From an uncultured Acidobacteriota bacterium (GTDB taxonomy: Bacteria; Acidobacteriota; Thermoanaerobaculia; Gp7-AA8): DNA of 64,000 nt. The notes under the pieces are model-generated. The model was not told where the DNA came from. It saw only the letters and a program-made list of their open reading frames with translations, and did no database searches. This document shows positions 41,701 through 64,000 of the stretch, in pieces (within the stretch, counting starts at the first letter, position 1; every line of letters begins with the position of its first letter). A program made the translations under genes and the position numbers. The stretch is taken from contig CAVUKB010000004.1 of NCBI GenBank assembly GCA_963741955.1, positions 64,001-128,000 of the forward strand. Direction: 5' to 3'.

Positions 41701-44700
41701 AATGAAAGAAGTGGCGATTCGTGGGAAACCACCGCGGAGTCGGATGGGAGCTTTGCCGTCGTGGTGAACGGTCAGATGGACGACGCGATTTCGCTTCAGG
41801 CCCGAGACTCGAGCTACTTCGCCATGACGTCCGGCACGATCGAGGTCGGTACCTTGCCCGCGGATGCACCTGCGAGTTCGTCTGTCGATCCCGCAGCCTG
41901 GGGCGTCGATGCGGCATTCCGTGTCCGGAGCGTCGCGGCCGGATGGCACCGGTTGCTCGTAGGCGGCCGGCCTTTCTACGCCGGATCCTGGAGCGGTCAC
42001 TCCGATAATCTCGCGATACTCGATACGACGAATACCGCTTCTCCCGGGCTCATTGGGAAGCTCTCAGTCGGCAACGGTTGGATCAGGGACATACTGGTTC
42101 GAGACGACAAGGCATACCTGGCCTGTGATGATCTGCGAGTCATCGATCTGGCAGGGCCAGTGCCCACGGTGGCCGTGCCCGACCGTGCCGTGAGTGGGAA
42201 CGCGATGGCGGTGGCGGTCGACGGCGGCAACGCGTGGGTTTCGAGCGATCAGGGCGACGGGCGGTTGACTCTCTTCGATGTGACGGATCCGTTCCATGCA
42301 CGCTTTGTGGTCGAACGCAGCATGATGTCCGGAGTCACCTTTACCGGTCTTTTCGACCCTGGCCCGAACTATCTCATCGCCACCTCTCCGAATCGGACCA
42401 ACAGCGGGACCTTGGGGCACGATGTCGTCGTCATCGATCGCCGCAATTCGACGGCTCCGACCATCGCTGCGGATCTCGACATCCCCGCATTCGACGCGAG
42501 ATCGGGCGTGCTCGTCGGTAATCTCTTGTACCTCGCCGGCTTCGACACCGGATTCGCCATTGTCGATGTGTCCGATCCGGCACACCCGGTGACTCGAAGC
42601 GTCAACCCGATCGGATATGTGCGTGGTGTTTACGTCGCAGGCACGGATGCTTACGTGACCGTGGGGACGAGACTCGAAATGTTCGATATTTCCGATCCCA
42701 TGACGCCGGTGCTCGAAGGTATTACGGACCTTCCAGGAGACGGATGGGAGATCGAGAGGACCGGCGACATGCTCTATGTAGCGGCCGATACGACGCTGTC
42801 GATCGTGTCTGCGTCGCCGTCACCGTCCGTCGATGCGTATCTATTCACTGTGAACGGACCGACAGGTGTTGCCGAAGTGCACGGACAGCCGAACGCTATC
42901 GTGGGCGTCGCGCCACTGACGGTCGAGCTACGTGACGTCGCCCGCGGATCATCGACGGCGGGTATTTCCGTGGCCGCCGATGGAAGTGTAGACGGATCGA
43001 TCGCCGCGCAACCTGGGGATGAGGTCGAAGTCATCGCCACGGATTCGCTCGGTCGGTCAAGTCTGGTCGTGACGATCGGCTCGGTGCCGTTTGGAACCGG
43101 AGACGTCACGGTACCGATCACGTATGGGATGACGAACAACGACGTCAACTTCCGTGCACGGCTGCTGGAGGTGGAAGGGACGAACCTGATCACGACCGGA
43201 TGGCACGACACGGACAAGGTGGTGCGATTCGATCTGACGGATCCGCGTTCGCCGGGGTACGTGGAGACGATCAACGTCGGCAACGGGAAAATCTGGGATG
43301 TCGCGCTGCGGAACGGGTATGCGTATGTGGCGGCGAGCTACTTGCGGGTGCTCAATTTGAACGTGACGCCAGCGACGGAGTTCACGCCAGACGCAGGCAG
43401 CCTCAACACGGCGGTATCGGTAGCGGTGGACGGAACGTACGCATTCGTCGGCGCGGACGGAACGAGCGGATGGATTCAGATTCTGGACGTGAGCAACCCG
43501 GAAGCGCCGCACTGGATCCGGAGGCAGAGTCTGGGCGGAGGAGTGAACTTCCACAAGCTGATCACGCTGGGAACCGACTACCTGATCGGGATCACCCCGC
43601 AGGGGAACAACGATATCTGGATCATCGACCGGCGGGACATCAACAACCTTCGGGTGGTGGCGCAGCTGTCGATACCCGGGATGACGGCAAGCACGGCGAG
43701 GCTCGAGGGAAACACGCTCTACGTGATCCACAGGGGGAGTGGGAACGGCGTGGCTGCAGTCGATGTGACGAACCCCGCGTCTCCGACGCTGCTCTGGACC
43801 TCGGCGACGGGAGGGCTCGGCTTCGGTCTGGATGTGGCCGGGTCGACGCTGGCGGTGGGGGATGGGAGTTCGGGAGTGAGTCTGCTCGATGCGAGCGGTC
43901 CGGGTGGCGCTACGCTGAAGGGGACGCAAACGTTACCGGGAACCAGCTGGGATGCGCGGTTCGCGAACGGAGCCTTGTACGTCGCGCACGAGACCGGGAT
44001 CAGCGTGATCTCGGGTGTCGTCGCACCGCCGGTGATCGACGTTTCGGGAATCACCGTGGCGCAGACGAGCGGCGGTGGTCTGGTGAACGGCGGCGTGAGA
44101 TCCGTGACGGGAACGGGCGCCCTGAGTGTGACTCTGCGAAACGAGACGAGCGCCGCAACGTCAAGCAGTGTTGCAGTCTCCGCCGATGGGAGTTTCAGTG
44201 CGACGGTGAGCGGAGTACCAGGCGATCGTATCAGCGTCACGGTAACGGATGATTCGGGTCGGTCCACCGGCCCGACAGTGATCGGAGCGATCCCGTTCGG
44301 CGGTGCGATAACGACGGTACCGATCACGTATGGGATGACGAACAACGACGTCAACTTCCGTGCACGGCTGCTGGAGGTGGAAGGGACGAACCTGATCACG
44401 ACCGGATGGCACGACACGGACAAGGTGGTGCGATTCGATCTGACGGATCCGCGTTCGCCGGGGTACGTGGAGACGATCAACGTCGGCAACGGGAAAATCT
44501 GGGATGTCGCGCTGCGGAACGGGTATGCGTATGTGGCGGCGAGCTACTTGCGGGTGCTCAATTTGAACGTGACGCCAGCGACGGAGTTCACGCCAGACGC
44601 AGGCAGCCTCAACACGGCGGTATCGGTAGCGGTGGACGGAACGTACGCATTCGTCGGCGCGGACGGAACGAGCGGATGGATTCAGATTCTGGACGTGAGC

Positions 44701-47253: not shown

Positions 47254-48826
47254 CAGGTGTGTAGCAGAGTTCATAGGCCGAGAGGATGGAATGCGATTGC
47301 TGACGTACAGAGGAACGCCATTGCGATCAGAGCTTCCGCGGTGTGAAAGCCGAAAGCGCGGTGACTGAGCATTCGGATCTTGTTGTTGCAGCCTTCAGCA
47401 ACTGCATTCGTGAGTCGATACTCGAAGTAACGGCGGATGCCAGGCCATTTCGCCGCGACGGTTCGCGCGAAGCGAACGAGGGGTTGAATGCGGCTATGAA
47501 CCGCGGACTGATACCAGCGCTTGAACCGTCGATCAGCTTGGCGGACGGACGAGGAGTCATAGATGTCCTGAAAGGATTCCTTGACCAGGTAACTGCGAAA
47601 GAGGGTGTGATTCATCCGCGCGAGCTCCGAGAGTTTCGCCTCCTCGGCATCACGCAGGTTCCAGGGGTTCTTCAGGAGGACGAACCGAGTGGATTTGAGA
47701 GCGGAGCGCTCCTCGCCGGTGGCCTTTCGCATCTCGTCCCGCCTCACCTGATCGATCGCATTCCCGAGGAGTTGGACCACGTGGAACCGATCGAAAACGA
47801 CCTCGGCGTTCGGCAGTCGGTCGCGAACAGCTTTCTCGAAGGCCGCGCTCATGTCGATGCTCACCAGACGGATTCGCGCGCAGCGCTCGGGGCCGAGCAG
47901 ATCGAACAGCCCGTCGAGAACCTCTGCACTTTTACCCTTCGCCGCCCAGATCATCTGCCCGGTCTCGTGGTTCGTGACCACGGTCATGAACTTCTTCGGC
48001 CGCCCCCAGCAGATCTCGTCGATGCCGATCCGGGTCAGATTCTCGAGCGCGTTCGGGTCGCGTTTTTCGGCAACCACTCGAGCGGCGATCCGTCCGGCCG
48101 TGAGCCAGCTGACCTTGAAGTACGCCGAGACCGCGGTTTGATTGGATCGCTGCAGAAACCAGGCAAGCTCGTCTTCGAACGCGCGGGTGAACATCGAACC
48201 AGGCCGTGCCCACGGAACCGCGGCCGTTCGCACCCCGCAGCGGCGGCAACGCACCCGCGGCAGATCCGCCCGCAGCATCACCCGGCATCCCCAGAGGCCG
48301 AGATGACGCCATTCGCGATGCTTCATCACCGTTCCGTGAAGCTCGGGAGCAACCCGTCCGCACCCTCCGCACCGCGGACGTCTCCACGTTGGACTCACGT
48401 CGAGATAGAGACTCCGAGCTTCGAACCGAACCCCGCGAACCGTTACGTTTGCCATGTTGAGCAACTTCCGGAACAATGTCGTCAGGCGCACCGTGCCTGT
48501 CCTCCCCGTGTCTTGGTTTCATCGACTACAGACTACGGGAAATGGGCAGCACGGTTCGCCGATTCCAACCTGCTATCGCTGCTTCGATCTTCACCTCTCC
48601 ACGAGCAGCGACTTTCGGGGCTCCTTCAGATCCTTCCGCGACGGCGGGGCAAGTTGTGGGAACGGCGGAAAACGCGGCGGCCGGGTGGCGGCGTTTTCCG
48701 CGGTTTCCACAACTTCGCTTTCCGAACGCTTCGGCGAACACCGACTTGCTCCTCGAAAACAGCCGCGTCGCCGTTCCTGCATGCCTCCGACAATCATTCC
48801 GCACCTACACACCTGTTAGGAGAACC
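47243..48826 (-). mobile_element. Complete ISL3-family insertion sequence, 1584 bp
   Basis: 22-bp IRs GG(A/T)TCTCCTAACAGGTGTGTAG; 8-bp TSD AATTTTTG at 47235-47242 and 48827-48834. Confidence 0.96.
47271..48491 (-). CDS. ISL3-family transposase
   Basis: CxxC...CxxC zinc finger, IGIDE, VSIDMSAAF, FDRFHV, TNAVAEGCNNKI...AFGF. Confidence 0.96.
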   Translation of the reverse strand: MRLTTLFRKLLNMANVTVRGVRFEARSLYLDVSPTWRRPRCGGCGRVAPELHGTVMKHREWRHLGLWGCRVMLRADLPRVRCRRCGVRTAAVPWARPGSMFTRAFEDELAWFLQRSNQTAVSAYFKVSWLTAGRIAARVVAEKRDPNALENLTRIGIDEICWGRPKKFMTVVTNHETGQMIWAAKGKSAEVLDGLFDLLGPERCARIRLVSIDMSAAFEKAVRDRLPNAEVVFDRFHVVQLLGNAIDQVRRDEMRKATGEERSALKSTRFVLLKNPWNLRDAEEAKLSELARMNHTLFRSYLVKESFQDIYDSSSVRQADRRFKRWYQSAVHSRIQPLVRFARTVAAKWPGIRRYFEYRLTNAVAEGCNNKIRMLSHRAFGFHTAEALIAMAFLCTSAIAFHPLGL

Positions 48827-48842: not shown

Positions 48843-49025
48843 CCGAGCCTCGAGCCCCGAGCCTCGAGTCCCGCATCCACTCTTCCGAGCCTCGAGCCCC
48901 GAGCCTCGAGCCCCGCGTCTCTCACCTCGAGCCTCGAGCCTCGAGTCTCGAGCTCCGCGTCTCTCACCCCGAGCCTCGCGTCCCGAGCCTCGAGTCCCGC
49001 GTCTCTCACCCCGAGCCTCGCGTCC
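48843..49025. repeat. (CGAGCCT)n heptamer array of junction cassette copy 2 (copy 1 at 45832-45892)
   Basis: Both copies are followed by CCTGGAGCAGCG-ATGA-C(C/T)TCACC(C/T)TCGCAGAAAG. Confidence 0.9.
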
Positions 49026-49048
49026 CGCACCTTCAGCCTGGAGCAGCG

Positions 49049-52000
49049 ATGACTTCACCTTCGCAGAAAGCCATGAAAATGACGCAATCTCGCCAGACGG
49101 AGTCGCCCATCGGCCTCGACACTCAGAGACAATCAGACTGTCCCTCTCGAACCGGTTTATTCCGGACTACGGAGCGGCAGCAAGCGCGCGCGAGCGCCGC
49201 GCTCGTCGACACTGATCAGACAACCTGCCTGGATCGCCTCGGCGTGACTCTCGACGAGAGCAAGGATCATCGCCACGAGTTCCTCGTTCAGCACGTCCAC
49301 CATGCGGATCTGAATGACAGTGGGAAGACGCTGGGAGCTCAGGGCGAGGAGGTCGCTGAAGTCGAGGTCCCGGGTGACGACGACCCAGCCTTGCCGTCGA
49401 GCTCTCTCCAGAATCTCGGAATCAGCTGCGGTCGGCTCGCCGATCGACATCCAGTGAACGCTCTCGATCCCTCTTGTCGACAGCTTTCGCGCGAGGGAAG
49501 GAGCGAGATTGAAGTCGATCAGCAGCTTCACTGCGGGTCCGCAGCCTTACCGATCTCGACCTCGGCCTCGGACGAACGCCACGCTCCGTACGCCAGTGCC
49601 TCGCGGATGTCCGCTTCCTCGAGGTACGGATACTCGGACAGAATCTCCTCGGCAGTTCGCCCGGACGCAAGGAGCCCGAGGATCGTTCCCACCGTCACCC
49701 GCATCCCGCGGATGCACGGCTTTCCGCCCATGACTGCCGGATCCCTGGTGATGCGTGTCAGCCGATGCATGTCAGCCCTCCAGCGGAAGATCGGCGGTGC
49801 GGCTGCCGATCGTGTCCATTCCATCTCCCGCAACGCCACGGCCCGAACCCGAAATCTCGACAGGCCGAGGCATACTTCGAGCAGCCGCAGGAGCTCGGCT
49901 CTGAGCGGCCTCTCCGCCGCGCTGCTTCTCTTCTTCGCGCTACTTCCCGCCCTCCCTCTTTTCGCCCAATCTCCGACCGAAGTCGTCGTTCAGGAAGACT
50001 TCCAGTCGTACCCGACCCAGGCCAACCCGCAAGGCTGGGTCGATACCTCCGTCGGCAACCCGCACCCCCAGGCCGAGGGGCTGTACAAGACGTGGCCGGA
50101 TCCGACGCAGGGGAACAAGGGAGCGAATGTCGTCTACGGGACGAAACAATCCTCCGGCAAACCGGAAGGGCGCAACCCGCGCATCGGGACATTCTCCACA
50201 CTCGTCGATCACACATTCGGCACAAAGGGACGTTTCGAATACCGCGGGCGTTTCATCCGCACGCGCTCCGACGCGCGCATCGGCCTCACGTTCCTCTCCT
50301 CCTATCCCGACTCCGACCACTATTACCTTCTCGGCCTCTGGTCCCAGGCGACGTCGAGCAAGCTCACCATGCAGCTCTTCTCGTTCGGCGCGGGGACGCT
50401 GACCGGCACCATCGACAGCAACTTCACTCCCGAGCCCGGCAAGTGGATCCGCTTCCTCATTCAGGTCGACGGATCGGACGCTGGCAACAAAATCCGCGCG
50501 CGCTTCTGGATCGACGGCACCGACGAGCCGTCCGGATTCACGATCGAGGCGGAAGACTCCGCCGCGGGACATCTCGCGTCGGGCCGCATCGGTATCTGGG
50601 CCGCAGTCAAGGGCGACGCATACTTCGACGAGCTCTTCGCGAAGTACCCGGTCGACATCACCGCGCCCGCAATCTCCTTCCTCGAGTCGGGAACTACGCT
50701 CAACGACGGCGCGAAGTTCAACCGCGACGTCGCCCCCGCGATTCAGGTCGTCGACGACACCGACCCGAGCCCCTCCTGGTCCGCAACGCTCGACGGACAG
50801 CCGTTCACGTCCGGAACGACGGTCGCCGCCGAGGGAACGCATCTCCTTGCAGTCGACGCGGCCGACTCAGCCGGGAACGCGTCGCACGCCCAGCTCTCCT
50901 TCTTCATCGACAAGACTGCGCCGCTCCTCGCGGTTACCGAATCGGGCGCGCCACTCGCCGACGGCGCGATCTTCGATCACGATGCTGTCGTCTCGATTGT
51001 CGTGACCGACATCAGCGCGACCACCGACGCGATCCTCCTCGATGGCCAGCCTTACACATCGCTCACCCCGATCACCACGGAAGCGCAGCACGAGCTTTCC
51101 GTCTCTTCGATCGACGAGCTCGGAAACGGCCCCACGACGTTCGGTCCGGTTCATTTCTTCGTCGACGAGACCGCGCCGGTCGTGACCATTCTCCAGAACG
51201 GAGCGACGCTCCAGGAAGGCTCGGCGTTCAACCACGACGTCACCGGCTCACTCGCTATCGAAGACCTGACCCCGACCACGAGCTCCATGGCCCTCGACGG
51301 GCAGCCCTATGCGTCCGGAACGCCGATCAGCACCGACGGCTCTCACACCCTCGCCGCGACGGTCACGGACTCCGCTGGTCACACCACCACCGCCGGCCCG
51401 CTCCATTTCATCCTCGACGAGGCAGGGCCCACGGTCACCATCCTCGAGAGCGGCCAGCCGTTCCCGGCGGCCTATTTCTTCAACCGGGATGTCGTCGCGT
51501 CGGTCTCAGTCGACGACATCGCGCCGCACACCGCGACGATGTCTCTCGATGGTCAGCCGTACACGGAAGGGACGCCGATCACCGCCGAAGGTCCGCATGA
51601 GATCTCGGCGCACGTGACGGACACCGCAGGAAACGACGTGACCGTCGGTCCGATCGCGCTCACCATCGACAAGACTCCGCCCGTCGTGACGCTCCTCGAG
51701 AGCGGCCAGCCGTTCGCGGCGGGCCAGACGTTCCCACGCGACGTGGTCGCGGATGCCACTGCCACCGACACGATCTCGAAGGCCACGCTCACTTTGACCC
51801 TCGATGGGCAGACGTACGTCGCCTCCACTCCCGTCACCGCCGAAGGAGAGCACACCTTCGCCGCGACCGCCGTCGACCAGGGGGGGAACACGGCGTCCGC
51901 CTCCGTCTCCTTCGTCATCGACGAGACTCCCCCCGAGTTGTCGTTGCTCCTCGGCGGGCAACCGTTCCCGGCCGACCTCTGGACGAATCAGGATGTCACT

Positions 52001-55000
52001 CCCGAGCTCGACATCGTCGACATCTCCACCACCACGACCGACGCGACGCTCGACGGAGCACCGTACGCGATCGGCGCGCCCGTCTCTCTGGAAGGGGAGC
52101 ACGTTCTCGACGTCGCCGTGACCGATGCCGCGGGGTGGACCACGACGCTCGACGCGGTGACGTTCCACATCGACCGCGTACCTCCGGCACTCACTGTCAC
52201 TTCGCATCAGCAGGGTCAGGTCTTGCCGGAGCCGCGCGTCGTCCTCGCCGGCGGTGCGGATGACGCCGTGAGCGTCACGGTGAACGGCCAGACGGCGACG
52301 GTCGACGCGACGGCGAGAACGTGGACTGCGCCCGAGCTTCCACTGCTCGAAGGAAGCAACGCGTTCACGATCCGCGGGACGGACCGCGCCGGGAACAGCG
52401 GGGAGATCACGCTGAATCTAGTTGCCGACACCCGCGCGCCGGAGCTCGCGATCGTGGCGCCCGTTGCCGGAAGCTGCGTCGCCGGCTCGCCGCTCGAGAT
52501 CCGCGGTTCAGCCAGCGATCCCGAGATCGGCGACGTCGTGGTCTCCGTCGATGGAACGTCGGTTCCCGCCTCGCTCGACGCGTCCGGCAACTTCGTCGTC
52601 ACGTTCGCCAACCTCTCCGAAGGAGAGAAGAACGTCACCGTCACGGCGACGGATACGATCGGACATGCGACCTCGCTCGTCCTCCCGCTCAGCATCGACC
52701 GCACGCCGCCGGTCATCGCCGTCACCGAGGGCGGCAAGCCATTCACCGCGACGCTCGTGAACCGCCCGATTGCACTCTTCATCAGCACCAGCGACGCCGA
52801 CCCGAACGCGAAGCCGGTGGCAACGCTCGACGGCGCGGCGTACTCCTCCGGCTCCACGATTGCGAATGAAGGTGCCCACGCGCTTCAGATCACCGCGACC
52901 GACTGTGCCGGTCTCACCGCGACGAGCTCCCTTACCTTCACCATCGACACGACCGCACCGACCATCACGAACCTCCTCCCCGCCAACGGTGCCACGGTAG
53001 GGGAGATGCCGACGACGGTCACCGGCAAGACCGATCCTGACGTCCACGACCTCGTCGTTCGAGCCTCGAGCCTCGAGTCCCGAGCCTCGTCTTTCGCCCC
53101 CGACGGCACCTTCACCATCCCCAGCGTCCCCTTCGCCGAAGGGGAGAACCGCTTCACGATTCACGCGACCGATGACGCCGGAAACTCCAGCGACACGCCG
53201 TACGTCGTCACCGTCCGCACGACGACTCCTTCTCTCGAGATCCTCGACAGCGGCTCGCCGATCCCGCCCGGCGCGCTCTACAACCGCACCGTCACGCCGG
53301 TGATCCGCAGCGGAGCCTCCGACGCGACGATCTCCGCGACCCTCAACGGCGATCCCTTCACCTCGGGGACGGAGATCACCGCGGACGGCGCGTACACTGT
53401 CGACGCCACCGCCACCGACTCGCTCGGCCACAGCGGGAACGCAACCGCGACGTTCTCGATCGACCGCACGCCTCCCGCTGTCGCGATCGCCTCGCCCGCC
53501 GACGGCGCGGCGATCGACGCCGATCAGGTCGTGGTGACCGGCACGTCCGGGGATGCGACATCCGTCAATGTCGACGGCGCGCCCGCCGCACTCGACGGCA
53601 GCGGCCACTTCACCGCGACGCTTCCGCTCGAACCGGGCGAAACGGCGATTATTGCGACCGGCCGTGACGCCGCCGGCAACTCCGGCACCGCTCAGATCAC
53701 CGTCACCCGCGCCGCTGCTGCGACCGGCATCATCCTCACGTCACCCACCGACCACTCCCTGACCAACCGCCCGACCACAGTCGTCACTGGCCGCATCCTC
53801 ACTCCCGCAAATGCCGTGTCGCTCGTCATCGACGGCACCGCGCTCGGAGCGCAGGCTACCGGCCGGCGCTCTCCTTCAAATGCACCCGGATCCACGCCGC
53901 TCGCGACGGCCCATTCCCCTCTCCCCGTCCGGACCTTTGCCTCGGGCGTAAATCGAACTCCGGGGAGAGGGGTCAGGGGTGAGGGGCAACTACGCGCGCA
54001 AACCGAAGTTGTGAGCACGAGTCCCGAGTCCCGAGCCTCGAGCCTCGCAACTCCCTTCGACCCCACCGGCGCATTTCGCGTCACCGCGTTCCCTCTGGTC
54101 GAAGGCGAGAACACCATCACCGCGACCGTCACCGACAAGTCCGGCAAGACCAGCACCGCGAGCGTCCGGATCACAGCAGACCTGACCCCACCCGCTGTGT
54201 CGCTGCTCGAATCAGGCCAGCCTCTGGAGGACCAGGCCCGTTTCGCGACGCAAGCCCTCCTCTCCGCGACGGCGACCGACTCCGGTGCCGCCATCGACGC
54301 GACCCTCACCATCGACGGCGCGTCTGCCACGTCGCCCGGCACGATCACGGCTGCCGGCCCGCACATCGCAATCGCCTCGGCACGCGACACGGCCGGCAAC
54401 GTGACCCGCGTCCAGCGCACGTTCTTCATCGGTACGGAGCAGGGGAGTGGGTGCGGTCTCTCCGCATTCGATCCTGCCGATGGCTCCGTCGTCACCGCGA
54501 GCTCCGTCACGCTCGTCGGCCGCAGCGGCGGCGCAGCCGGCGTCACGGTCAACGGTGTCCCCGCAGTGGTCGCGAACGGCTCGTTCTCCGGCACCGCGGA
54601 GCTCCCGCAGGAAGGGCCGAACCTCGTCACCATCCGCTGCACCGACGCCTCCGGCAACCCCACCGGCGGCCCGGTCACCCTCACTCTCAACCGCGTCACC
54701 GGCAATCCATCCGTTTCCATCACCACTCCCGCCGAGATGGCGACGTTCGCCGCCGGAACCGTCGATGTCACCGGCACGTACGCCGATGCCTCCCGCGTCG
54801 ACGTCAACGGAGTCGCCGCGACGCTCGCGAACGGAACCTTCAGCGTCGCCGCGCTCCGTCTCTCTCCTGGTCTGAACATCCTGGTCGCCCGTGCCACCAA
54901 CGAAGCCGGCCGCAGCTCCATCGCTTCGCGCCGCGTCCTCTATCTCGACAAGTCGTCCGTGATCTCCATCGACTGGCCGAACGACGGCTTCACCACCGGC

Positions 55001-58000
55001 GCCGCCTCTCTGGACGTCAGCGGCACGTGGAGCAATCTCGTTCCGTCGACCATCACAGTCAGTGTGAGCGGCGTGCAAGAGGCGAGAGACGAGAGGCGAG
55101 GGGCGAGAAGGAACACAACAGGTCGGCTGCGGTCGGCGGAGCCACGATCGAAGAACGATGTCGCGAGCGACGACGGTACGGTTTCTTCACGCACCGCCCG
55201 CCACTCGACACACGCCTCCGATCGCATCGCAGCGCAGGGAGAGAAGAATGAGCTTCGACTATCGCGATCTGAAAGCGTGGCAGCTCGGAATGCAGATGGC
55301 TCGTCGGGTCTACGAGATCACGCGAGATTTTCCGAAGCGAGAACAGTACGGCCTGACGCAACAGATCCAGAAGGCAGCCGTTTCGGTTCCGTCGAACATT
55401 GCGGAAGGTCATGCGAGGGATTCGACGGCGGACTTCCTCCGCCATCTGTCGATCAGTCGCGGTTCGCTCGCGGAATTGGAAACGCAGCTGATCTTGGCGA
55501 AAGCTTTTGGATATCTCCCTCTGCAGAGCCTGGAGGAGTTGATGAAAGTATCGGACGAGCTGAGCCGAACTCTGAGGGGACTTCAAAAATCGTTGAGGCG
55601 TCGACTGGAGAAGAAACCATAGCGGAAGTGTCGATCGATGCGATTGCGTGGTCCGACACGACTGGAAACTTCATCGCTCACGCGGTGCCCTTGCTTCCCG
55701 GTACTCAGACCATCACCGTGACGGGTTCGACCATGGATGGTCGCATCGCCACCACGAGTATTCGGGTGACCAGAATCGATGGCGAATCAGACATTACGAT
55801 CGATTCGCCTCTCGCCGAATCCTGGTTCAGCGCGAACGCGGGAGATCCGATCTCCGTCGCCGGCACCTTCACTGCAGCTCCCGGTTCCAATGTCGAGGTG
55901 AATGGTTCGACGGCGACCCTCGGCGTCGCCTCTTCTTCGACCAGAACAGTCACCCTCGCCGCGTCCTCAACGAGCGCTGTCTCTGCGCACCCCGTTTCTT
56001 CGCTCGCCTCTCGCCTCTCGCCTCTCGCCTCTTCTTCGACCAGAACAGTCACCCTCGCCGCGTCCTCAACGAGCGCTGTCTCTGCGCACCCCGTTTCTTC
56101 GCTCGCCTCTCGCCTCTCGCCTCTCGCCTCTTCTCCTTACTCTGCAACCGCCGCGTTCTCCTCCTCCGACCCCACTCCCATCATCGCCCGCGTCACCCAG
56201 CCCGACGGCCTCTCCGCGATCACGACCATCTTCGTCCATCACCTCTCGGGCGCTCCTGCAGTGAAGGACGTCTTCCCCGCGGACGGCGCCACTTCCGTCG
56301 ATCCCGCAGCGCTGATCCTCGTCTCCTTCTCCGCGCCGATGGACCGCGCGTCGCTCTCGGCCGCATTCACGCTCGAGAACATGAGCGGCATGCCCGTCGC
56401 CGGACAGATGCGTCTCGATCGCGATGTCCTCAGCTTCGCCCCCGCGACGACTCTCAATCCCGGCGAGCGCTATACCGTCCGTCTCTCGACCGCCGCGAAG
56501 GACCTCGCCGGGAATGCGCTCGCCTCCGAGTTCACCAGCAGCTTCACGATCTCCACCACGGCGCCATCCACCGCGCCGGTGGTGAACCCGGTCGCCTCGC
56601 CCCTCTGCTCGGATCGGGTCGCCCTCAGCGGCACGGCACTTGCGGGGTCACGTCTGCGGATCGATTTCAAGGGCGTTCCGCAGTTCACGGCCGCGGCTCC
56701 GACGGAACGTGGCATTTCGATCTCGCCATCCCCGCCGAATCGGGATTCGACGTGGTCCGCGTCCGCATCGTCGGCGGCGACGGCACGCTCTCGCCTGCGG
56801 CCGAAGTGAAGTTCCAGGTCGACTGCGCCGGTCCGCAGCTTCTCGGCGCGTCCTACGACCGCACCACGAACATCGTCACCATCGACGTTCTCGAAGCCGA
56901 TGGATCTCGCATCAGCGTCCACCGGCCGAACTCCGCTCTCTCTCTCCAGATCGCCGACGGCACGATCCTCGGCGGCACCGTCGCGCAGGGCGACGAGCTC
57001 CTCTTCGCTCACCCTTACGCCAGCATCCGATCTGACGCAGCAGACGTTCACGCTCAACGTCACGACCGCGATCAAAGACACTACCGGCCGCAACCTCGTC
57101 TCCGGCTATACGCAGACCTTCGCCACCGGCTCCGGATCCGAACCTCCTCCCACCGACGGCACCGGCTACATCTCCGGCAAGATCCTCGACGCCGCCACCG
57201 GTCGCCCCCTCGCGGGCGCGGACATCACCATTGACGTCCCCGTGAACGCCTTTGCCCGAGGGGAGCAAGCTCATAGCTTGCTCTCTCGTTCCACTGGATC
57301 CGCACCCATGCCTCTCGGGACCTCCGGTTCCCCTCTCCCCGTCCACACCCAGGCCTCGGGCGCAATTCGCACTTCGGGGAGAGGGGTCAGGGGTGAGGGG
57401 CAGCTACGCGCGCTGAGCGAAATCGTAAGCGCCGCTTCGTCCACCCTCTCCTCCGACGCCACCGGCACCTATACCACCCGCCTTCCCGAAGGCGCCTACA
57501 CCATCCACGCATCCGCTCCCGGCTACACCGAGGTCTGGCGCCAGATCGTCGTCCCGGCCGGCCAGGGCGTCCTCCCGATCGACATCCGTCTCACACCCCT
57601 CGGCGCCACCGGCACCGTCGGAGCGGCCTCCATCGAGCCCCGAGCCTCGAGCCTCGAGCCTCGGTTCCGTCGGCTCTCCCACGAGCCCCGAGCCTCGAGC
57701 CTCGAGCCTCGGCTCTGTCGGTTCTCCCACGAGCCCCGAGCCTCGAGCCTCGAGCCTCGGCATCCTCTTCAGACCTGACCCTCTCCCACGGCGGCGAGAC
57801 ATCCGTCACCCGCCCCGCGACGCTGACCGTCCCCTCCGGCGCCGATCACCTCCGGCACGACACTGACACTCACCTCCGTCGGCGGCCAGTCCCTCGCCGG
57901 CCTCCTCCCTCTCGGCTGGTCCCCGCTGGCGTCCACAGAGATCTCCTCCGTCGCCACGTCCGCGAACGCAGCCCGAGGGGAGCGAGCTTATAGCTTGCTC

Positions 58001-61000
58001 TCTCCGAAGACATCCGCAGAAATCGGACCTGCCAGCGCGAATCGCCCAGCGTCCTCCCTCGCCGCTCCGGTTTCGTCCTCACTCGTCTCTCGCCTCTCGT
58101 CTCTCGCCTCTCTCCCCAACTCCACTCTCACGTTCACCGTCCCTTACACCGATATCACCAGCGCGGCTCAGACCCTCACCGCCGTCCGCTACGACAGCGA
58201 TCGCGACGAATGGATCGTCCTCGAGCCCGTCGTCAGCATCACCTCCGACGGCCCCGCCTCGATCACCGTCGACTCCACCGGCGCGTACGCTCTCGTCTAC
58301 CCGGATAAGGACTCGGGGAGTACTCTGCAGACTCCACCGCTCCCCATTCCAGGCTCGGCGCTCGCCGGCGTCACTCCCGTCGACCTCGATCCGACGACCA
58401 TCACCGCATCTCTCACCCTCGATCCTTCGATCGTTCTCCCCAGCGGCCGAACCGTCGGCACCCTCACGGTCTCTCCGAGCCTCGAGCCTCCAGCCTCGAG
58501 CCTCGCGTTCCCCTCGGGCACCGCAGTCCAGGCGTTCGTCCACGAAGAGCTGCGTCTCGTCGACGGAACCGTCGTCGCGGACCAGCCGTTCTCCGCGGAC
58601 CTCGTCCTCTACCGCACGCTCTCCGGCGCTCCGGCGACCGCGGCGTTCCACCTCCAGCCGAGCGCGAAGGCCGCGACGGTTCCGCTGCAGATCGGCTACG
58701 ACCACATCCGCGTCTTTCCGTATCCCGGACGCCTCGACCGCGGCACACTCATCGGCCCCGAGGGTGGACGCGTTCCCTCGGATGGGGGAGTGGAGCTCGA
58801 GATCCCGCCCGGCGCAGCCACCGAGCCGCTCCACGCCAGCGCGACGTCGCTCGACGCCACTGCGCTCGCTTCCTACGGCACCATCGACGGCTTCACCCTC
58901 GTCGGCGGCTTCACGTTCTCGCTCGACCGCGCAGTCGGGGGAGAAGAGGCGAGAGACGAGAGGCGAGAGGCGAGTGGATCTGACGCCCGAGGCTCTCGTG
59001 GCTCGGGCTCTTCGTCACGCGCATCGGAGATTGGAGCTGGCAACGGTGATCGTGAAGCGTTCTCTCTCGCCTCTCGTCTCTCGCCTCTCGCCTCTGACGT
59101 CGCGTCCCCCACGCTTCTCGCCTCCGCCCGCGCGACCTTCTCCGTCGACACGACCAATCTCACCGCGCCCCAGTTCATCCTCGCCGAGGTCCTCGGCGAC
59201 ACGCCGTACGGCCGTGTGATCCGTCTTGCGAACGTGATGGAACCACTTGTTGGAGGAGCCGAGGCTCGAGACTCGAGGCTCGAGGCTCGCAGCGGCATCG
59301 CCCGTGGAGAGCAGGCTTATAGCCTGCTCCCTCCGGTACCATCTTCAGACACGGGTGTCGCGAACGATCATCGTCAGGCGTCCTCTCTCGCCTCTCGCCT
59401 CTCGTCTCTCGCCTCTGATTCCACGCGCATCACCACATCCAGGATCGATCCCTCGAACCTCCCTCTCGACGGCATCTCCCACTCCGGGATCTACCTCCTC
59501 CTCCGCGCGAACCAGCCCATCGCCTACGCGACGGGTCTCGTCCGCTTCGGCATCTCCGGCCTCTACGCCTCCGACGCCAGCGTCCTCTCACTCACGTCGA
59601 CGCCACTCGGGACGGCGTCGGTCAAGGAGGCGAGAGGCGAGAGGCGAGAGGCGAGGGGAGGAACGAATTCCGGACTTCTGTCATCGTCACCCGCTGATGC
59701 GCAGGCTCATAGCCTCCGCTCTGGTTCCGGCAAATCCGTACCCGCGACTCTCGCGACGCCCGCTTCCCCTCTCCCCGTCCGCACTCTCGCCTCGGGCGCA
59801 AATCCCAATTCGGGGAGAGGGGTCAGGGGTGAGGGGCAACTACGCGCGCAGAACGAGGTCGCTCGCAGGGCCTCCTCCCTCGCCTCTCGTCTCTCGTCTC
59901 TCGCCTCTTCTCCCGCGTCGCTCGCCGCTTCGTCCCCCCTCGGCACCACCGACCTTACCCGCCCCACCGGCCTCTTCTCCATCCCCGTCGTCGCCACTCC
60001 CGCGGATCCCTTTGCGCTCCAGCCCTCGCACCCATCCACCGGCGCCGGCACCCCCTGGACCGCAAACTCCAGCCCTGACCCCGGCATCGTCATTCACGTT
60101 GGCGATCTTGTTCTCACATCGCAGCCGCCGCAGCTCCAGCACGTCAACGTCATTGGCGGCGACCCCTCCGGCACGATCGACCTCGTCGCCGTGAACGGGG
60201 CAGGCGAGATCTCCCTAGGCACGAGTGTTCAGGCCCTCTTCGACGTGAACCTCGATCCGGCATCCGCCGGCGCGACCTCGCTCGTCGTCACCGACGCGTC
60301 CACGCAGACCGTCGTCGCGGGCACCGCGATGCTCGCCGGCTCGACCCTCACCTGGACCGCATCCACTCCGAACGCGCTTGCGCCGTCGAGGCAATACAGG
60401 GTGACCCTCTCAGCCACGCTCCGCGGCGCGAACGGCGCCCCGCTTGGGACGACCCGCACGTTCGCCTTCACCACCGTTTCGCAGATCACCAGCACCGAGA
60501 TCGATCCTTCCAAGATCCACATCACCATCCCCGACGCGAACGGCGTATCCACAATTTACGGCCTCCCCGGCGCGCTCCCCTCCGGCTGGCGCGCCGTCGC
60601 CCTCCGCCGCGGCACCGCCTTCGTCACGCAATACCAGACCACCGCCGCAGGGGATGGAAGTTTCTCGTTCGCGATCGGCGGGTGCGGGGGAGGGACGGGG
60701 GTCGGGGGTCAGGGGTCAGGGGTCAGGGAGCTGAGTCGATCTGATCGCCGGACCTCTGAGATTTCCCGCGACGAAGCCTTGTCCCTGTATTCGTCGACCC
60801 ACACGTCACCCCGACCCCTGACCCCCGACCCCGGACCCCTAAGCTCCGTCTCGCAACCACAATTACGAAAGGCCACTCATGAAGATACAAACCTATCGCG
60901 ATCTGGTCGTCTGGCAGGAATCGATGCAGCTCGCGAAACAGGTGGTCCTGATCGCGCGTCGGTTTCCTCGGGAGGAACTCTTCGGATTGTCGGCGCAGGT

Positions 61001-64000
61001 CAAGAGAGCAGCCGTATCGGTGCCGTCGAATATCGCGGAAGGGCACGCGCGGGATTCGACGAAGGAGTATCTCCATCATCTATCGATTGCTCACGGTTCT
61101 CTGGCCGAAGTGGAGACGCAGCTCCTGCTGGCGAAGGATCTTGGCTGGGGAGACTCGTCTTCGATCGAAGGAGCTCTCCAACAGAGCGATTCACTCGGCA
61201 GGAAGCTTCACGCATTACGCAGATCGCTTCGATCGCGCCGCTGACGGCGGCTCTCCCTGACCCCCGACCCCTAACCCCTGACCCCCACTCCCGTCAGGCG
61301 ACTACGACATGCACGGACCAGCTCTCCCTCACCGACCACATCTCCCTCGAGATCCTCAACACCGCCGACAACATCGCGGCGATCATCCCGCTCACGCCAT
61401 TCGTCACGGCGGACGGCCACGGCTTCGTCGCCCCGCCCGACCAGGACATCACGTTCATCATCTCGGACGAGATTACCGTCCACGTCCCCGCCGGCGCGTT
61501 CGACCAGCCAACGCTCGTCACCGCCACGCCGTCCACGAAGGACGCCTTCTCCGAAGTCCCGAACTTCGACACAGAGCTCGACTACAAAGCCTCGGTCAAC
61601 CTCTCCTTCGACTGCACAGTGGCTTCTTCGTCCTCCCCGAGCCTCGAGCCTCGAGCCTCTAGCCTCGGTTCCCCAAGTCTCGGTTCCCCAACGAGCCTCG
61701 AGCCCCGAGCCTCGAGCCTCGCGTTTCCCTGTCGCGCGAACAAGCCCCTCGACCTCTCCATCCCGGTTCCCGCAAACACCGACCCCACGAAGCAATACCT
61801 CCTCGGCTGGCTCGGCCAGTCCATCCGCGGCCCGCGGATCATGATCGTCGACACCCTCCGCATTGACGGCGACCACTTCACCACCACGCCCGCGCCGTCG
61901 ATCGGAACGACCAGTGCGCAAACCGTGCACGCATCGTCGACCTTTTCAAACTCGTCGCTCTACCAGGTTCGAGATCCCGGAACGTACGTCATCACCTCAC
62001 TGCTCAGTCCCTACGCCTGGGTGGATGTCGTCGTCAGATCGGCTGACCTCTACTGGTCGACGTCGTTCTCTCTCTTCGTCGCAGAACGCTACATCACGAT
62101 GGCGAAGGGTCACGTATACATCCCCGTGCTGACGGACACGCCCTTCCGCGTCTACGGCGTGGACGCGACCGGTTTCGAAACCTATTCGCGCGATTACGAC
62201 GGAATCGTTCCTGGAGATCCTGGAGTTTCGGTAGCACTCCCATCGGCATCTCCCGATAACAATGGACCTTATCCCGTGTGGGGCAGCCCTTATCGCGTCG
62301 ATTCCGTAATCCTTCGCGATGGAGACGTGATCGTTCCAAACATCAAGGTCAATCAGTCGGGAGGAGTTGCGACGGTCACGCAGAACTCTTCCTCCACCAC
62401 CGCGAGTGTTCTTTCGAAGGGAACGAAGGTTCAGGCATTCGACGTCGAAACCGGCGCGGTGAACAGCGCGACAGTCGGTGACGGCGGCAGTTTCTCGATG
62501 TCAGTTTCTCCGGTCCATTCCGGAGACCGTCTTCTTCTCTTCATCAGTGCCTCCGACGTCGATCCGTCGAGTCTCGTCACCGTGGTTTTCAACGAGCCGC
62601 TCCAGCTCGCGAACATTCCGGAAGGCATGAGCTCCGCGGATGCCGAGATCGCAAACGAGAAGTTCCTGCACGACCTCATCGGCCTCGAGCACTTCACTAG
62701 TACGGGATGGGTACCGATAACCGACCAGGTGCACTTCCGGCACGATTCGGGAGACCGCCGAATCGTCCTCGAGTTGCCGTCCTCGCTGGTTCGAGGCGAT
62801 CGGTATCGGGTTCACCTCAGCGAGGCAATCACCGACGCCGGGGACAACCACATCGGATCGGTTAAGGACTCCAGCGGGAAGGTCACCAACGGCGCTGGAC
62901 TCCCGTTGGATCTCGAATTCACGGTCCGCAGCCCACACGGCGCGATCTCCTCTTTCGACATCGATCCGAGCACGGCTCACCATGGAGGGCTCGTGCGTGA
63001 CATCGCACGCAACGACACCCTCGTCTTCGTCTCGGCTCTCGACGGCGGAATCCTCGCCTACGATACATACGATCCGGCTGCACTCGCAAAAGACGGAAGC
63101 ACTCCGGCGCCCCTTTCCTTCGTGCCGGCCGCATGGACCAACGATGCCGGACAGCAGGTGACCGGCGGGATGGACGAGCACTGGGCGCTTGCCGTCGATA
63201 AGCACGGGCGCGTCTTTTCGACCGGCTTCATGGCCTCGTTCTCGGTCCTTCGGACTTACCGCGTGGAAGATTTCTGGAAGGCCTCCACTCAGCCCATGTG
63301 TGCCGGATTCGATCAGGCGCCACCGCACGCCCTCTGTAGATACGAGGGCTCCTCAATCATCGCCTGGCGCCCCGGAGTGTCGCTCGGCATTCCCGGGATC
63401 GACGATTCCCTCTACGGACTGACGGAAGGCTATCCGCGAAAGATCCGAGTCATTGAGCAGGACGATGGAGGGGAAGCTCTAGATCGAGACAACTTTGCGT
63501 CGACCTACGGAGGCGCGATCCAGAAGACCTTCAGCAATGGGATTCAGAAACTCTCCGTCACCGTCGCATGGGATACCACGAATCCCTACCAGCTCCAGCG
63601 CATTACGGTGGAGAACCTGACTCAACAGCTTCACTGGTCTGCCGACGCGACCCCGACGTCTCCTGCCGTGATCTCGGAGATCCTCGCCAAACCGGACGAC
63701 AAGCTCCGAATTGTGAAGAACGAGCGCACGTGGGCCGTCGTATCTCTCTTCGGCTACGGGATCGCCACCTACGACGTGAACGCCATCGAATCCAATGATT
63801 CACCAGATAAGGCTGCGGGTTACACCAACGTACCCGAACAGCTGTTCCTCTCGTCCGCCAGCGTCGACGATGCGTGCGACGGCCGGACGTTCCCGACCGA
63901 GGCGATCCGGGATTTGGCCTTCAGTCCCGATTTCGTCGCGAAAGTGGAAGTCGACGCCACGACCAACACAGCGACCATTGGGATCGACGCTCTCGATGTC
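49049..64000 (+). CDS. Giant-2: secreted protein of at least about 4980 codons (lectin/ConA-like N-domain, many Ig-like repeats), 3' partial, with short indel clusters at 56690-57000 and 57630-57845
   Basis: GGAG RBS plus ATG MTSPSQK; hydrophobic signal LSAALLLFFALLPALPLFA|Q at about 49910-49967; D.T.P...LDGQPY.SGTPI..EG.H....TD.AGN repeats; frame 2 is open from 57827 to the window end (hand-translated to about 62450; no frame-2 stop appears in the ORF track). Confidence 0.85.
49157..49531 (-). CDS. DUF5615 PIN-like toxin, antisense within the 5' region of giant-2
   Basis: MKLLIDFNL...D.EIL..A.....VVVTRDLDF. Confidence 0.9.
   Translation of the reverse strand: MKLLIDFNLAPSLARKLSTRGIESVHWMSIGEPTAADSEILERARRQGWVVVTRDLDFSDLLALSSQRLPTVIQIRMVDVLNEELVAMILALVESHAEAIQAGCLISVDERGARARLLPLRSPE
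49528..49770 (-). CDS. DUF433 antitoxin
   Basis: RITRDPAVMGGKPCIRGMRVTV...EEILSEYPYL...DIREALAY. Confidence 0.93.
   Translation of the reverse strand: MHRLTRITRDPAVMGGKPCIRGMRVTVGTILGLLASGRTAEEILSEYPYLEEADIREALAYGAWRSSEAEVEIGKAADPQ
53916..53998. repeat. CCCCTCTCCCCG...CGGGGAGAGGGGTCAGGGGTGAGGGG hairpin element, in frame in giant-2 (further copies at about 57329-57412 and 59767-59850)
   Basis: All three copies translate SPLPV.T.ASG....(P/S)GRGVRGEGQLRA. Confidence 0.85.
55248..55622 (+). CDS. Four-helix-bundle protein (TIGR02436 / 23S rRNA IVP family), nested in the +1 frame of giant-2
   Basis: YRDLKAWQ, FPKREQYGLTQQIQKAAVSVPSNIAEG, SRGSLAELETQL; GGGAGAG RBS. Confidence 0.93.
   Translation: MSFDYRDLKAWQLGMQMARRVYEITRDFPKREQYGLTQQIQKAAVSVPSNIAEGHARDSTADFLRHLSISRGSLAELETQLILAKAFGYLPLQSLEELMKVSDELSRTLRGLQKSLRRRLEKKP
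55927..56133 (+). repeat. 99-bp tandem duplication ending in (TCGCCTC)n, in frame
   Basis: ASSSTRTVTLAASSTSAVSAHPVSSLASRLSPL occurs twice. Confidence 0.9.
58945..59095. repeat. Heptamer inverted-arm insert with a stem of about 30 bp, in frame in giant-2
   Basis: AGAGGCGAGAGACGAGAGGCGAGAGGCGAG (58945-58974) pairs with CTCGCCTCTCGTCTCTCGCCTCTCGCCTCT (59066-59095). Confidence 0.88.
60879..61244 (+). CDS. Second four-helix-bundle protein (TIGR02436 family), nested in the +1 frame of giant-2
   Basis: TYRDLVVWQ, FPREELFGLSAQVKRAAVSVPSNIAEG, AHGSLAEVETQL; flanked by (GGGGTCA)n at 60697-60727 and (TGACCCC)n at 60807-60840 and 61255-61288. Confidence 0.93.
   Translation: MKIQTYRDLVVWQESMQLAKQVVLIARRFPREELFGLSAQVKRAAVSVPSNIAEGHARDSTKEYLHHLSIAHGSLAEVETQLLLAKDLGWGDSSSIEGALQQSDSLGRKLHALRRSLRSRR

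Follow-up and report, generated by a model that had tools for sequence, protein, structure and literature searches.

Heptamer-built inserts, two of them carrying four-helix-bundle genes, in a giant surface-protein gene of an uncultured Acidobacteriota bacterium

The giant-2 Gene and Its Reading Frame

The window is a contiguous stretch of 64,000 nucleotides from an uncultured Acidobacteriota bacterium, and all coordinates below follow its numbering. Its right-hand part is occupied by giant-2, a giant surface-protein gene of this soil bacterium that is read in frame 2 and spans window-numbered positions 49766 to 66454.

49766..64000 (+), continuing to the equivalent of 66454 beyond the window: host gene giant-2 (frame-2 translation; Pfam; tblastn)
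56700..57880 (+): frameshift zone; orthologues match frame 1 at about 56700-56990 and 57748-57843, and frame 2 in the rest

The probable start is the ATG at 49769, which is followed by a signal-peptide-like N-terminus. Pfam searches identify Ig-like domains including Big_13, Glucodextran_B and Big_5, and the C-terminal part contains RHS/YD-type domains (PF05593, PF25023 and PF20148, precomputed on a 2879-aa product). Frames of 2777 and 2876 codons are open in DNA of 65% GC. An ISL3 transposase gene, part of an ordinary multi-copy insertion sequence without a tie to the heptamer arms described below, lies between giant-2 and the second giant gene, giant-1.

Five orthologues, one from each of five other genera, are collinear with giant-2 in tblastn and about 33-36% identical to it overall; closer relatives were sought in the protein database, where, the gene's own product aside, only proteins of 36-42% identity were found. 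At only about 33-36% identity, the boundaries of the inserts described below are blurred, and none of the insertions is datable.

As assembled, giant-2 has four frameshifts at 56.7-57.9 kb and frame-2 stops at 56807, 57776 and 57824 within this zone. The frameshifts form two compensating pairs within 1.2 kb, and none occurs across the remaining ~33 kb of the giant genes. The pair at about 56700 and 56990 is not associated with an insert, and a further frameshift near 57750 is linked to a repeat array. Given four frameshifts and three frame-2 stops, this allele may be broken now and selection on its frame may lie in the past. In a search of sequencing runs for words sampled from 54500-62500, one DNA run and no RNA run was found; the DNA run contains 72% of these words and may be the source sample.

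Inserts Built from 7-nt Units

According to the preliminary description, giant-2 is interrupted by about 13 inserts, most of them built from 7-nt units, and Tandem Repeats Finder detects period-7 arrays at essentially all of these sites. In the first half of the region, arrays lie at 53059-53089, 53968-54047, 55078-55108, 56003-56032, 56102-56131, 57376-57400, 57633-57759 and 58082-58112; in the second half, at 58476-58505, 58945-58974, 59064-59095, 59260-59289, 59385-59416, 59627-59655, 59879-59908, 60698-60728, 60808-60840, 61255-61285 and 61638-61721. The inserts, two of which are cassettes with a four-helix-bundle (4HB) gene, are as follows.

53060..53089 (+): TCGAGCC array of 30 nt, reading RASSLESRASS, which swaps residues rather than adding them
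53864..54058 (+): gene-less insert of a ~150-nt module (host peptide ...GVRGEGQLRA...) and a CGAGYCY array; missing in 5/5 orthologues
55070..55651 (+): cassette 1, with left GAGGCGA arm (55079-55108), spacer and 4HB gene; 582 nt = 194 host codons; missing in 5/5 orthologues
55925..56134 (+): 99-nt unit in perfect tandem duplication (2.1 copies), with a CTCGCCT x4 array at the end of each copy; 33 codons per copy, in frame; not in orthologues
57254..57442 (+): gene-less insert of a small hairpin module (z -3.2) and the ~150-nt GVRGEGQLRA module
57632..57787 (+): CGAGCCT array, 48 nt x 2.7 copies; fold z -4.4
57962..58112 (+): gene-less insert of a hairpin module and a CTCGYCT array (Tandem Repeats Finder; orthologue alignment)
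58475..58506 (+): CGAGCCT array of 30 nt, in frame (Tandem Repeats Finder; orthologue alignment)
58945..59098 (+): gene-less hairpin element with GAGGCGA x4 arm, ~90-nt loop and TCGCCTC x4 arm; ~28-bp stem, -91 kcal/mol, z -5.9
59246..59416 (+): gene-less insert of mosaic build, whose arms (CGAGGCT ... CTCTCGC) are not complementary and which contains an internal hairpin; z -1.8
59597..59938 (+): gene-less composite element with GAGGCGA x4 arm, hairpin module, ~150-nt module and TCGCCTC-type arm; ~34-bp outer stem, -165 kcal/mol, z -6.8
60692..61300 (+): cassette 2, with GGGGTCA arm, degenerate TGACCCC arm, 4HB gene and second TGACCCC arm; 609 nt = 203 host codons
61635..61729 (+): CGAGCCT-array insert, missing or far shorter in orthologues (query residues 113-145 unmatched)

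The comparison with orthologues that had been proposed as a check identifies 11 of the 13 as true insertions specific to this genome (MAFFT, five orthologues), an insert being called specific when at least four of the five orthologues have a gap over at least eight residues. The other two, the 30-nt arrays at 53060 and 58475, align to gaps of 3-7 residues or to non-homologous residues. On either side of the inserts, homology to the orthologues continues in an unchanged frame (tblastn). Cassette 2 is missing in 5/5 orthologues, which have 0-6 residues between its flanks.

The insert sequences recur across the 5.44-Mb genome as dispersed repeats: self-BLAST gives up to 63 other matches per position, and the dispersed copies share 70-84% identity. 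The ~150-nt module at 53864 is 79-84% identical to its copies at 57254 and 59700, and the left arm of the 58945..59098 element is nearly identical to that of cassette 1. Such shared copies across the genome bear out the suggestion that gene-bearing and gene-less heptamer-armed elements belong to one family. giant-2 contains 23 heptamer-periodic arrays vs 2.1 expected from the genome density (~11-fold); giant-1 contains 1, and the five orthologues 0, 0, 0, 0 and 2. Genome-wide, 49 of 384 heptamer islands are 'in frame and open' by a home-made codon model, which is noisy and of qualitative use only (on random placements, it classes 148/384 as same-frame, 159 as coding on one side only and 50 as non-coding on both sides). 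By this noisy classifier, most arrays in the genome lie outside genes, and the in-frame-and-open islands outside giant-2 are mostly single arrays of 24-30 nt.

The expectation that the inserts form long stems in RNA is borne out by folding predictions for 58946-59095 (z -5.9) and 59620-59915 (z -6.8), but not for cassette 1 and several others, which have no closing stem. Cassette 1 is without an adjacent right arm; TCGCCTC arrays complementary to its left arm follow about 380 nt further downstream, past conserved host coding sequence. In cassette 2, complementary GGGGTCA and TGACCCC arms are recognized by reading the sequence. The 99-nt duplication at 55925..56134 has no stem of its own (fold z +1.9).

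As gain or loss of a period-7 unit in the gene of a secreted or surface protein shifts the frame, the arrays might be contingency repeats, in which slippage by one unit switches the giant protein on or off (phase variation). The sole insert-tied frame change is indeed found at the longest array, 57633-57759, and heptameric repeat copy number differs among Coxiella strains, according to one report (PMC4990558). However, the giant-2 arrays are imperfect and mostly of only ~4.3 units, and they double as inverted arms around cargo and, genome-wide, are mostly outside genes by the same noisy classifier, which makes phase variation a highly unlikely basis for the inserts.

An origin of the inserts as repeat-induced chimeras of the assembly could be suspected because they are repeats and the contig has a local indel-ridden zone. 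Chimeras would not, however, be expected to occur in frame, stop-free and in domain loops 12 times; related cases in a helicase gene and in Nitrosomonas (see below) come from other loci or assemblies; and most sampled words of the region occur in the DNA run mentioned above, though this may be the source sample. We consider an assembly artefact scarcely credible.

Four-Helix-Bundle Genes Nested in giant-2 and Other Hosts

Each cassette carries a complete 4HB gene, as had been described.

55248..55622 (+): 4HB-1 gene, 124 aa, frame 0; PF05635 E 1.3e-37; GGGAGAG upstream of ATG
60879..61244 (+): 4HB-2 gene, 121 aa, frame 0; PF05635 E 3.2e-35; same frame relative to the host as 4HB-1

Both genes are intact, scoring 128.6 and 121 bits on PF05635 (cut-off 33.8) and covering profile positions 1-105 of 106; the PDB matches are 2gsc (XCC0516 of Xanthomonas, E 1.3e-26) and 2rld (E 9.9e-5). 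4HB-1 is nested within giant-2, whose frame begins at codon position 3 of 4HB-1. In both cassettes, the 4HB gene is a separately initiated ORF that overlaps the host ORF in another frame, and it may be expressed from there.

An association of such genes with heptamer arms, which the preliminary description had offered for verification, is found: heptamer inverted arrays occur on both flanks at 53/100 PF05635 loci vs 18/490 control placements, and at 4/7 loci in this genome. This co-occurrence makes the 4HB protein a candidate trans factor.

Nesting recurs in other hosts. A third cassette of this genome, with a 4HB gene of 121.8 bits on PF05635, lies inside an SNF2/NOV_C helicase gene with intact domains on both sides; it is missing in 4 orthologues, whose flanks are up to 76% identical, and no target-site duplication is seen at its junctions. 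A fourth lies inside a Nitrosomonas Eco57I-type methylase ORF. In 4/4 nested cassettes, the length is a multiple of 3 and the host frame is free of stops. A further suspected intragenic cassette, at C4:516.6-517.5 kb, proved to be intergenic, with an imuB-like and a dnaE2-like gene on its two sides.

The three 4HB genes of 'SxPxNIAEG' type in this genome are all nested, and the host (+2) frame of each contains 0 stops. Among homologues, a stop-free +2 frame occurs at 2/78 loci of other phyla and 2/29 loci of the same order (4/107 in total), and nesting was seen at 1/107 of these loci outside this genome. In a FastTree phylogeny, which is weak, unrooted and built from short proteins, the nested genes do not group as nearest relatives of one another, suggesting that nesting arose repeatedly; a pre-adapted 'intragenic lineage' of 4HB genes was rejected for the same reason.

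Evidence for Read-through of the Inserts

The 13 inserts together contain 10 and 28 stops in the two other frames and 1 in the host frame, and this one sits in the frameshift zone. The earlier claim that the inserts are stop-free and restore the frame thus stands for 12 of the 13, which have 0 host-frame stops; the homologous frame changes, from 2 to 1, only after the 57632..57787 array. It does not account for the second frameshift pair (~56700/56990), which is outside the inserts. Host-frame stops number 0 in cassette 1 (1 and 9 in the other frames) and 0 in cassette 2 (5 and 6). In five arms whose units bear stops, all stop triplets fall in phase 1 or 2 and the phase-0 unit reads CGA, GGA, CAG or TGG; in cassette 2, the in-phase units have CGA or GGA in place of TGA.

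Scored for codons in the host frame, the inserts reach -0.17 and the rest of the gene +0.24, suggesting that the inserts are foreign sequence that is read through. The host-frame peptide of cassette 1 is of low complexity and predicted to be disordered: in an AlphaFold model based on an alignment of only 6 sequences, its residues 141-331 have pLDDT below 50, and the flanking beta-strands 80-96. No intein Hint or splicing domain is found by Pfam in the host frame of most inserts other than cassette 1; only Ig-like families are detected. As the inserts outside the frameshift zone are free of host-frame stops, it is most likely, to judge from the sequence, that translation of the giant protein simply continues across them. 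Host-frame stop depletion, in-phase stop substitutions and low pLDDT agree with the first of two fates offered by the preliminary description, translation as disordered loops.

The second fate was processing or bypass at the RNA level, in which the elements would be removed or cleaved like RNase III-cut 23S rRNA intervening sequences (IVSs) and never appear in protein. Long perfect stems are predicted for the two hairpin elements named above, cassette 2 has complementary arms, and PMC4990558 describes excision of the homologous Coxiella IVS by RNase III at a 28-bp stem. Stems of 30 bp would also be likely to impede translation or recruit RNase III, and this fits poorly with efficient read-through. 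However, RNA removal or bypass would free the inserts from the need for lengths in multiples of 3 and stop-free host frames, yet both are constrained in 12/13 inserts and 4/4 nested cassettes. RNase III cutting without re-ligation would also sever the mRNA, and no closing stem is found in cassette 1 and several other inserts. Removal or bypass at the RNA level is therefore improbable.

giant-2 might instead be decaying under relaxed selection and passively gather repeats, the open frame being a leftover. The frameshifts and frame-2 stops at 56.7-57.9 kb are consistent with this, as is the density of heptamer arrays compared with the genome, giant-1 and the orthologues. Decay does not readily explain, however, that the two long frames are still open at 65% GC, that the twelve frame-keeping inserts contain 0 stops in the host frame vs 10 and 28 in the other frames, that in-phase stop units are substituted, or that the same features occur in helicase and methylase hosts with intact domains. 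Two compensating frameshift pairs in 1.2 kb and none in the other ~33 kb resemble a local problem of the assembly or the strain more than decay. Decay is thus an unlikely explanation.

A Model for the Origin of the Inserts

We favor, with a probability of roughly 0.7, the reading that the inserts are selfish cassettes of IVS-like or MITE-like type together with gene-less derivatives, read through as disordered loops. They would be selfish repeat DNA akin to the ORF-bearing 23S rRNA IVSs, with a PF05635 gene flanked by inverted arrays of 7-nt units; gene-less MITE-like derivatives and mosaic modules would use the same arms as the gene-bearing cassettes. These elements would have entered giant-2 at the DNA level, at loops of Ig-like domains. 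Only copies that keep the frame, with a length that is a multiple of 3 and no host-frame stop, would have persisted, and an in-frame stop contributed by a perfect arm or by 4HB coding sequence would have been removed by substitution. The persistence of frame-keeping copies and the substitution of their stops suggest that the ribosome would read straight through, turning inserts into disordered loops of 10-200 residues.

Neither a target-site duplication nor a link to a transposase was found for the inserts, and genome searches with Y1_Tnp (10 genes over the cut-off, two with a nearby heptamer array) and RVT_1 gave no clear link to the elements. A bolder view, which we regard as doubtful, is that the heptamer-armed PF05635 cassettes form a class of mobile element not described before, in which a pentameric 4HB protein would recognize the 7-nt arms and act in trans on gene-less derivatives with the same arms. 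giant-2 would then be a site of local proliferation, and a nested, overlapping life inside ORFs would be possible because host selection purges host-frame stops.

Comparison with Known Systems

The label of a 'new system' in the preliminary description is too strong, since ORF-bearing 23S rRNA IVSs (PMC4990558) and in-frame Rickettsia palindromic elements (RPEs; PMC10969869) are described in published papers. The IVSs known from Coxiella burnetii, Leptospira and Xanthomonas have an S23p/PF05635 ORF, i.e., the same protein family as the giant-2 cassettes. According to PMC4990558, they are ORF-bearing with terminal stems and heptameric repeats, and they resemble the cassettes in having a small ORF with tandem heptameric repeats adjoining it. 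Their ORF lies within terminal inverted repeats (~28-30-bp stem), a layout suggested for cassette 2 by its complementary arms, whereas cassette 1 has only a left arm. In both cases, the element sits in a long transcribed gene that withstands the insertion. Unlike IVSs, which lie in helix 25 or 45 of the 23S rRNA gene, the giant-2 cassettes lie within a protein-coding ORF with homology on both sides, and they are apparently translated in another frame rather than removed, so that host and cassette ORFs would overlap.

RPEs are palindromic dispersed repeats found in frame in unrelated ORFs, where they add a fold-compatible peptide (PMC10969869). Like RPEs and intragenic MITEs, the giant-2 inserts are multi-copy, dispersed, in frame (12/13) and missing in orthologues (11/13); terminal inverted repeats, typical of MITEs, are represented by inverted arms in only some of them. 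Unlike RPEs, they have arms that are tandem 7-nt arrays of several unrelated units, are mosaic, and number thirteen in a single gene, and two of them (four with the other hosts) contain an entire gene of their own.

The STRR and TAACTGA heptamers of cyanobacteria and Beggiatoaceae are also tandem, dispersed 7-nt repeats, mostly intergenic and occasionally in ORFs, but they are mainly direct repeats upstream of genes (PMC4679880); this paper has 0 mentions of a 4HB gene, S23 or intervening sequences. Avd of diversity-generating retroelements shares the four-helix-bundle fold and pentamers with a PF05635 relative (pentamer as cited in PMC4990558). However, the giant-2 4HB proteins score 30.8 and 21.6 bits on the bAvd model, below its cut-off of 40, and no reverse transcriptase is adjacent, the only RVT_1 match of the genome being on another contig (C11).

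In the literature outside subscription journals and supplements, no account of PF05635 cassettes within protein-coding ORFs was found. What is new here is gene-bearing cassettes nested in protein-coding ORFs, which the host ORF would read through.

Significance

To our knowledge, no function has been assigned for about 30 years to either the PF05635 'IVS proteins' or the heptamer repeats of bacteria. The present loci provide concrete constructs for studying read-through, RNase III cutting and binding of 4HB proteins to their own arms, and they call for caution in annotation, as gene callers will either break up hosts of this kind or overlook the gene nested in them. The cassette of gene plus arms reaches beyond rRNA and intergenic space into protein-coding ORFs. 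There, judging from sequence features, it would be read through rather than removed from the message, with the purged stops as the evolutionary footprint, and the outcome would be a stable overlapping gene pair together with disordered loops of 140-200 residues that are tolerated in folded domains.

Repeat Inserts in a Giant Surface-Protein Gene

Two giant genes lie in the window, in a source genome (G000) of 16 contigs, 5.44 Mb and 63% GC.

Features of the giant-gene region (window positions)
29743-47253, giant-1, a giant ORF
47271-48491, minus strand, ISL3-family transposase gene between giant-1 and giant-2 (DDE_Tnp_ISL3, E 4.6e-72)
near 49769 to a point corresponding to window position 66454, giant-2, read in frame 2
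55248-55622, frame 0, PF05635 four-helix-bundle (4HB) ORF 4HB-1, within cassette 1
60879-61244, frame 0, PF05635 ORF 4HB-2, within cassette 2

The ISL3 transposase gene is multi-copy in the genome and is followed by a long CGAGCCT-type array (48843-49039) just upstream of giant-2. The giant-2 product has a signal-peptide-like N-terminus and many Ig-like domains, and precomputed Pfam labels place RHS/YD-type domains in its C-terminal part. Because RHS-repeat, YD-shell and DUF6531 labels occur there (contig C4:128001-130454, i.e., window position 64001 onward; protein P0001), giant-2 may encode a giant surface protein resembling Rhs-type polymorphic toxins.

The roughly 13 segments, most of them heptamer-built, which the preliminary description saw as breaking the domain pattern of giant-2 are dispersed repeat elements inserted at the DNA level. 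Tandem Repeats Finder detects period-7 arrays at nearly all of these places, each about 30 nt long with about 4.3 units (CGAGCCT, GAGGCGA/TCGCCTC or GGGGTCA/TGACCCC). In BLAST comparison of 47-64 kb with the genome, the dispersed repeats are exactly the insert segments, with up to 63 other matches; copies are diverged (70-84% identity), and three modules of about 150 nt in giant-2 are mutual best matches. In a six-sequence MAFFT alignment with five collinear orthologues from related genera (about 33-36% identity), 11 of the 13 inserts are specific to G000, defined as a gap in at least four of the five orthologues across at least eight residues; the other two are 30-nt arrays aligned with short gaps or non-homologous residues. 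At the cassette 2 site, each of the five orthologues has only 0-6 residues between the flanks. Heptamer-periodic arrays in giant-2 number 23 vs 2.1 predicted by genome density; giant-1 has one, and the orthologues have 0, 0, 0, 0 and 2.

Within giant-2, a 99-nt unit of 33 codons is tandemly duplicated at 55926-56134 (2.1 copies, 100% identity), implying that a repeat element was duplicated in frame very recently. The loop matching about 57254-57420 is repeatedly permissive, as an orthologue from another genus (genome G007, locus L013) carries an insertion of about 40 residues there that is unrelated to the one in giant-2.

Selection for an Open Host Frame

As had been proposed, all inserts but one return to the protein-like frame: 12 of them are flanked on either side by homology to the orthologues in frame 2. 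The 13 inserts together (about 2.9 kb) contain 10 stops in frame 0 and 28 in frame 1 but a single one in the host frame (57776), located where the homologous frame has shifted. A heptamer array encodes one 7-residue repeat in every frame, so that a stop-containing unit would strike the host frame once in three units. Cassette 2 has CGA or GGA as the in-phase units of its TGACCCC arms, and TGA and TAA occur there in phases 1 and 2 only. The pooled host-frame codon score is -0.17 for the inserts vs +0.24 for the rest of giant-2, indicating that the inserts are foreign sequence merely kept open.

The preliminary description also reported two complete four-helix-bundle genes in the inserts, and both match PF05635 over its full length (128.6 and 121 bits). 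The solved Xanthomonas protein 2gsc is related to their products (E 1.3e-26); both fall below the cut-off of the bAvd model, and no RVT_1 match lies near the genes, the sole one in G000 being on another contig. These cassette genes are kept intact while the host reads 4HB-1 and 4HB-2 in the frame starting at their codon position 3. This frame is free of stops in all three G000 4HB genes of the nested-type subfamily. Of 80 homologues fetched from other phyla, two were dropped as mis-parsed, and 2 of the 78 evaluable ones have the frame open, as do 2 of 29 same-order homologues, one of whose loci comes from a genome flagged unpublished; the base rate of about 4% is only approximate because related genomes are not independent. 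The host frame is kept open by selection. The nested 4HB genes would be translated from their own start codons; GGGAGAG or GGAGG precedes three of the four.

Two fates of the inserts had been envisaged: translation as disordered loops, or processing or bypass at the RNA level. RNA-level excision or bypass is disfavoured, because the observed frame constraints would then serve no purpose. Ribosomes would instead read through the inserts, producing disordered loops. An AlphaFold model of window 54662-55924 based on the six-sequence alignment is consistent with cassette 1 forming a long loop, disordered and set between two strands: confident beta-strands lie on either side (block pLDDT mostly 80-96), and residues 141-331, the host-frame reading of the cassette, have pLDDT below 50 and almost no secondary structure. 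The long RNA stems also envisaged are predicted for part of the inserts that were folded. Arm pairs with arm over a long stem at 58946-59095 (z -5.9) and at 59620-59915 (z -6.8), and the 57625-57765 array pairs with itself (z -4.4); 59262-59411, 53900-54010 and the 99-nt duplication fold no better than shuffles.

One region of giant-2 departs from a single frame. As assembled, window 56700-57880 contains two compensating frameshift pairs with three frame 2 stops between them (56807, 57776 and 57824), frame 1 carrying the orthologue homology at about 56700-56990 and 57748-57843. The second stretch starts at a CGAGCCT array. None of the four frameshift sites has a long homopolymer, no frameshift is seen in the remaining ~33 kb of giant-1 and giant-2, and a homologous protein search found no close relative. 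Giant-2 may be intact here, may have been broken recently or may be mis-assembled locally.

Nested Cassettes in Other Host Genes

Cassettes in other protein-coding ORFs
C4:5209-5638 (locus L128, outside the window), third G000 cassette, with its PF05635 gene at C4:5249-5611, inside a 1313-codon SNF2/NOV_C helicase gene
L085:2440-2880 (NZ_JBEUDO010000061.1, Nitrosomonas sp. ANs5), cassette with CTAGGGG-type arms in an Eco57I-type (PglX-like) methyltransferase ORF

In the helicase gene, a single frame runs from Helicase_C, which precedes the cassette, to NOV_C, which follows it, and about 143 codons at the site are missing from four orthologues with flanks up to 76% identical. The in-phase unit of its TAGGACT arm is CAG. 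The same gene holds a second small heptamer insert (C4:6020-6075). The Nitrosomonas case is the only nested one among 78 foreign 4HB loci; its relative frame equals that of the three G000 cassettes, with in-phase units CAG and TGG. The four nested 4HB genes are not mutual nearest relatives in a FastTree analysis of 99 sequences (weak and unrooted), suggesting that nesting arose repeatedly and that the open frame results from host-level selection and not from a specialised element lineage.

Association of 4HB Genes with Heptamer Arms

A genome-wide link between PF05635 genes and heptamer arms is borne out both in G000, where four of seven such genes have flanking inverted heptamer arrays of four different units, and beyond it. 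Among 100 usable homologue loci (109 fetched; flanks of at least 300 nt required), arrays occur upstream in 81 and downstream in 58, and on both flanks in 53 vs 18 of 490 control placements taken within the same loci. In 45 of those 53, an inverted match at least 8 nt long links the two flanks. This agrees with the Coxiella intervening sequence (IVS), for which heptameric repeats and a 28-bp stem are described (PMC4990558).

Other array-associated genes in G000
L132:4470-4907, minus strand (within C4:516600-517500), PF05635 gene from a different subfamily, flanked by inverted GAATGCA/TGCATTC arms, between imuB-like and dnaE2-like genes (SOS mutagenesis operon)
C7:941635-942320, small Y1-transposase gene (PF01797) with a nearby array
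C6:499623-500208, small Y1-transposase gene (PF01797) with a nearby array

The two Y1-transposase genes are among the three best small PF01797 genes of G000, and each lies no more than 800 nt from a heptamer-periodic array, so that such arrays may flank other cargo besides 4HB genes. No target duplication is seen at the helicase cassette junctions, and searches covering the ISL3 gene, Y1_Tnp and RVT_1 found no transposase linked to the elements.

In anatomy, the elements resemble ORF-bearing rRNA intervening sequences (PMC4990558), although the nested cassettes lie outside the location that defines an IVS. In their fate inside genes they resemble Rickettsia palindromic elements (PMC10969869), but their arms are heptamer arrays, and four of them carry a complete cargo gene. 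Literature searches, with subscription journals and supplements outside their scope, yielded no published account of PF05635 cassettes nested in protein-coding ORFs. What is new here is the combination of 4HB cassettes nested in ORFs with a quantified footprint of stop purging.
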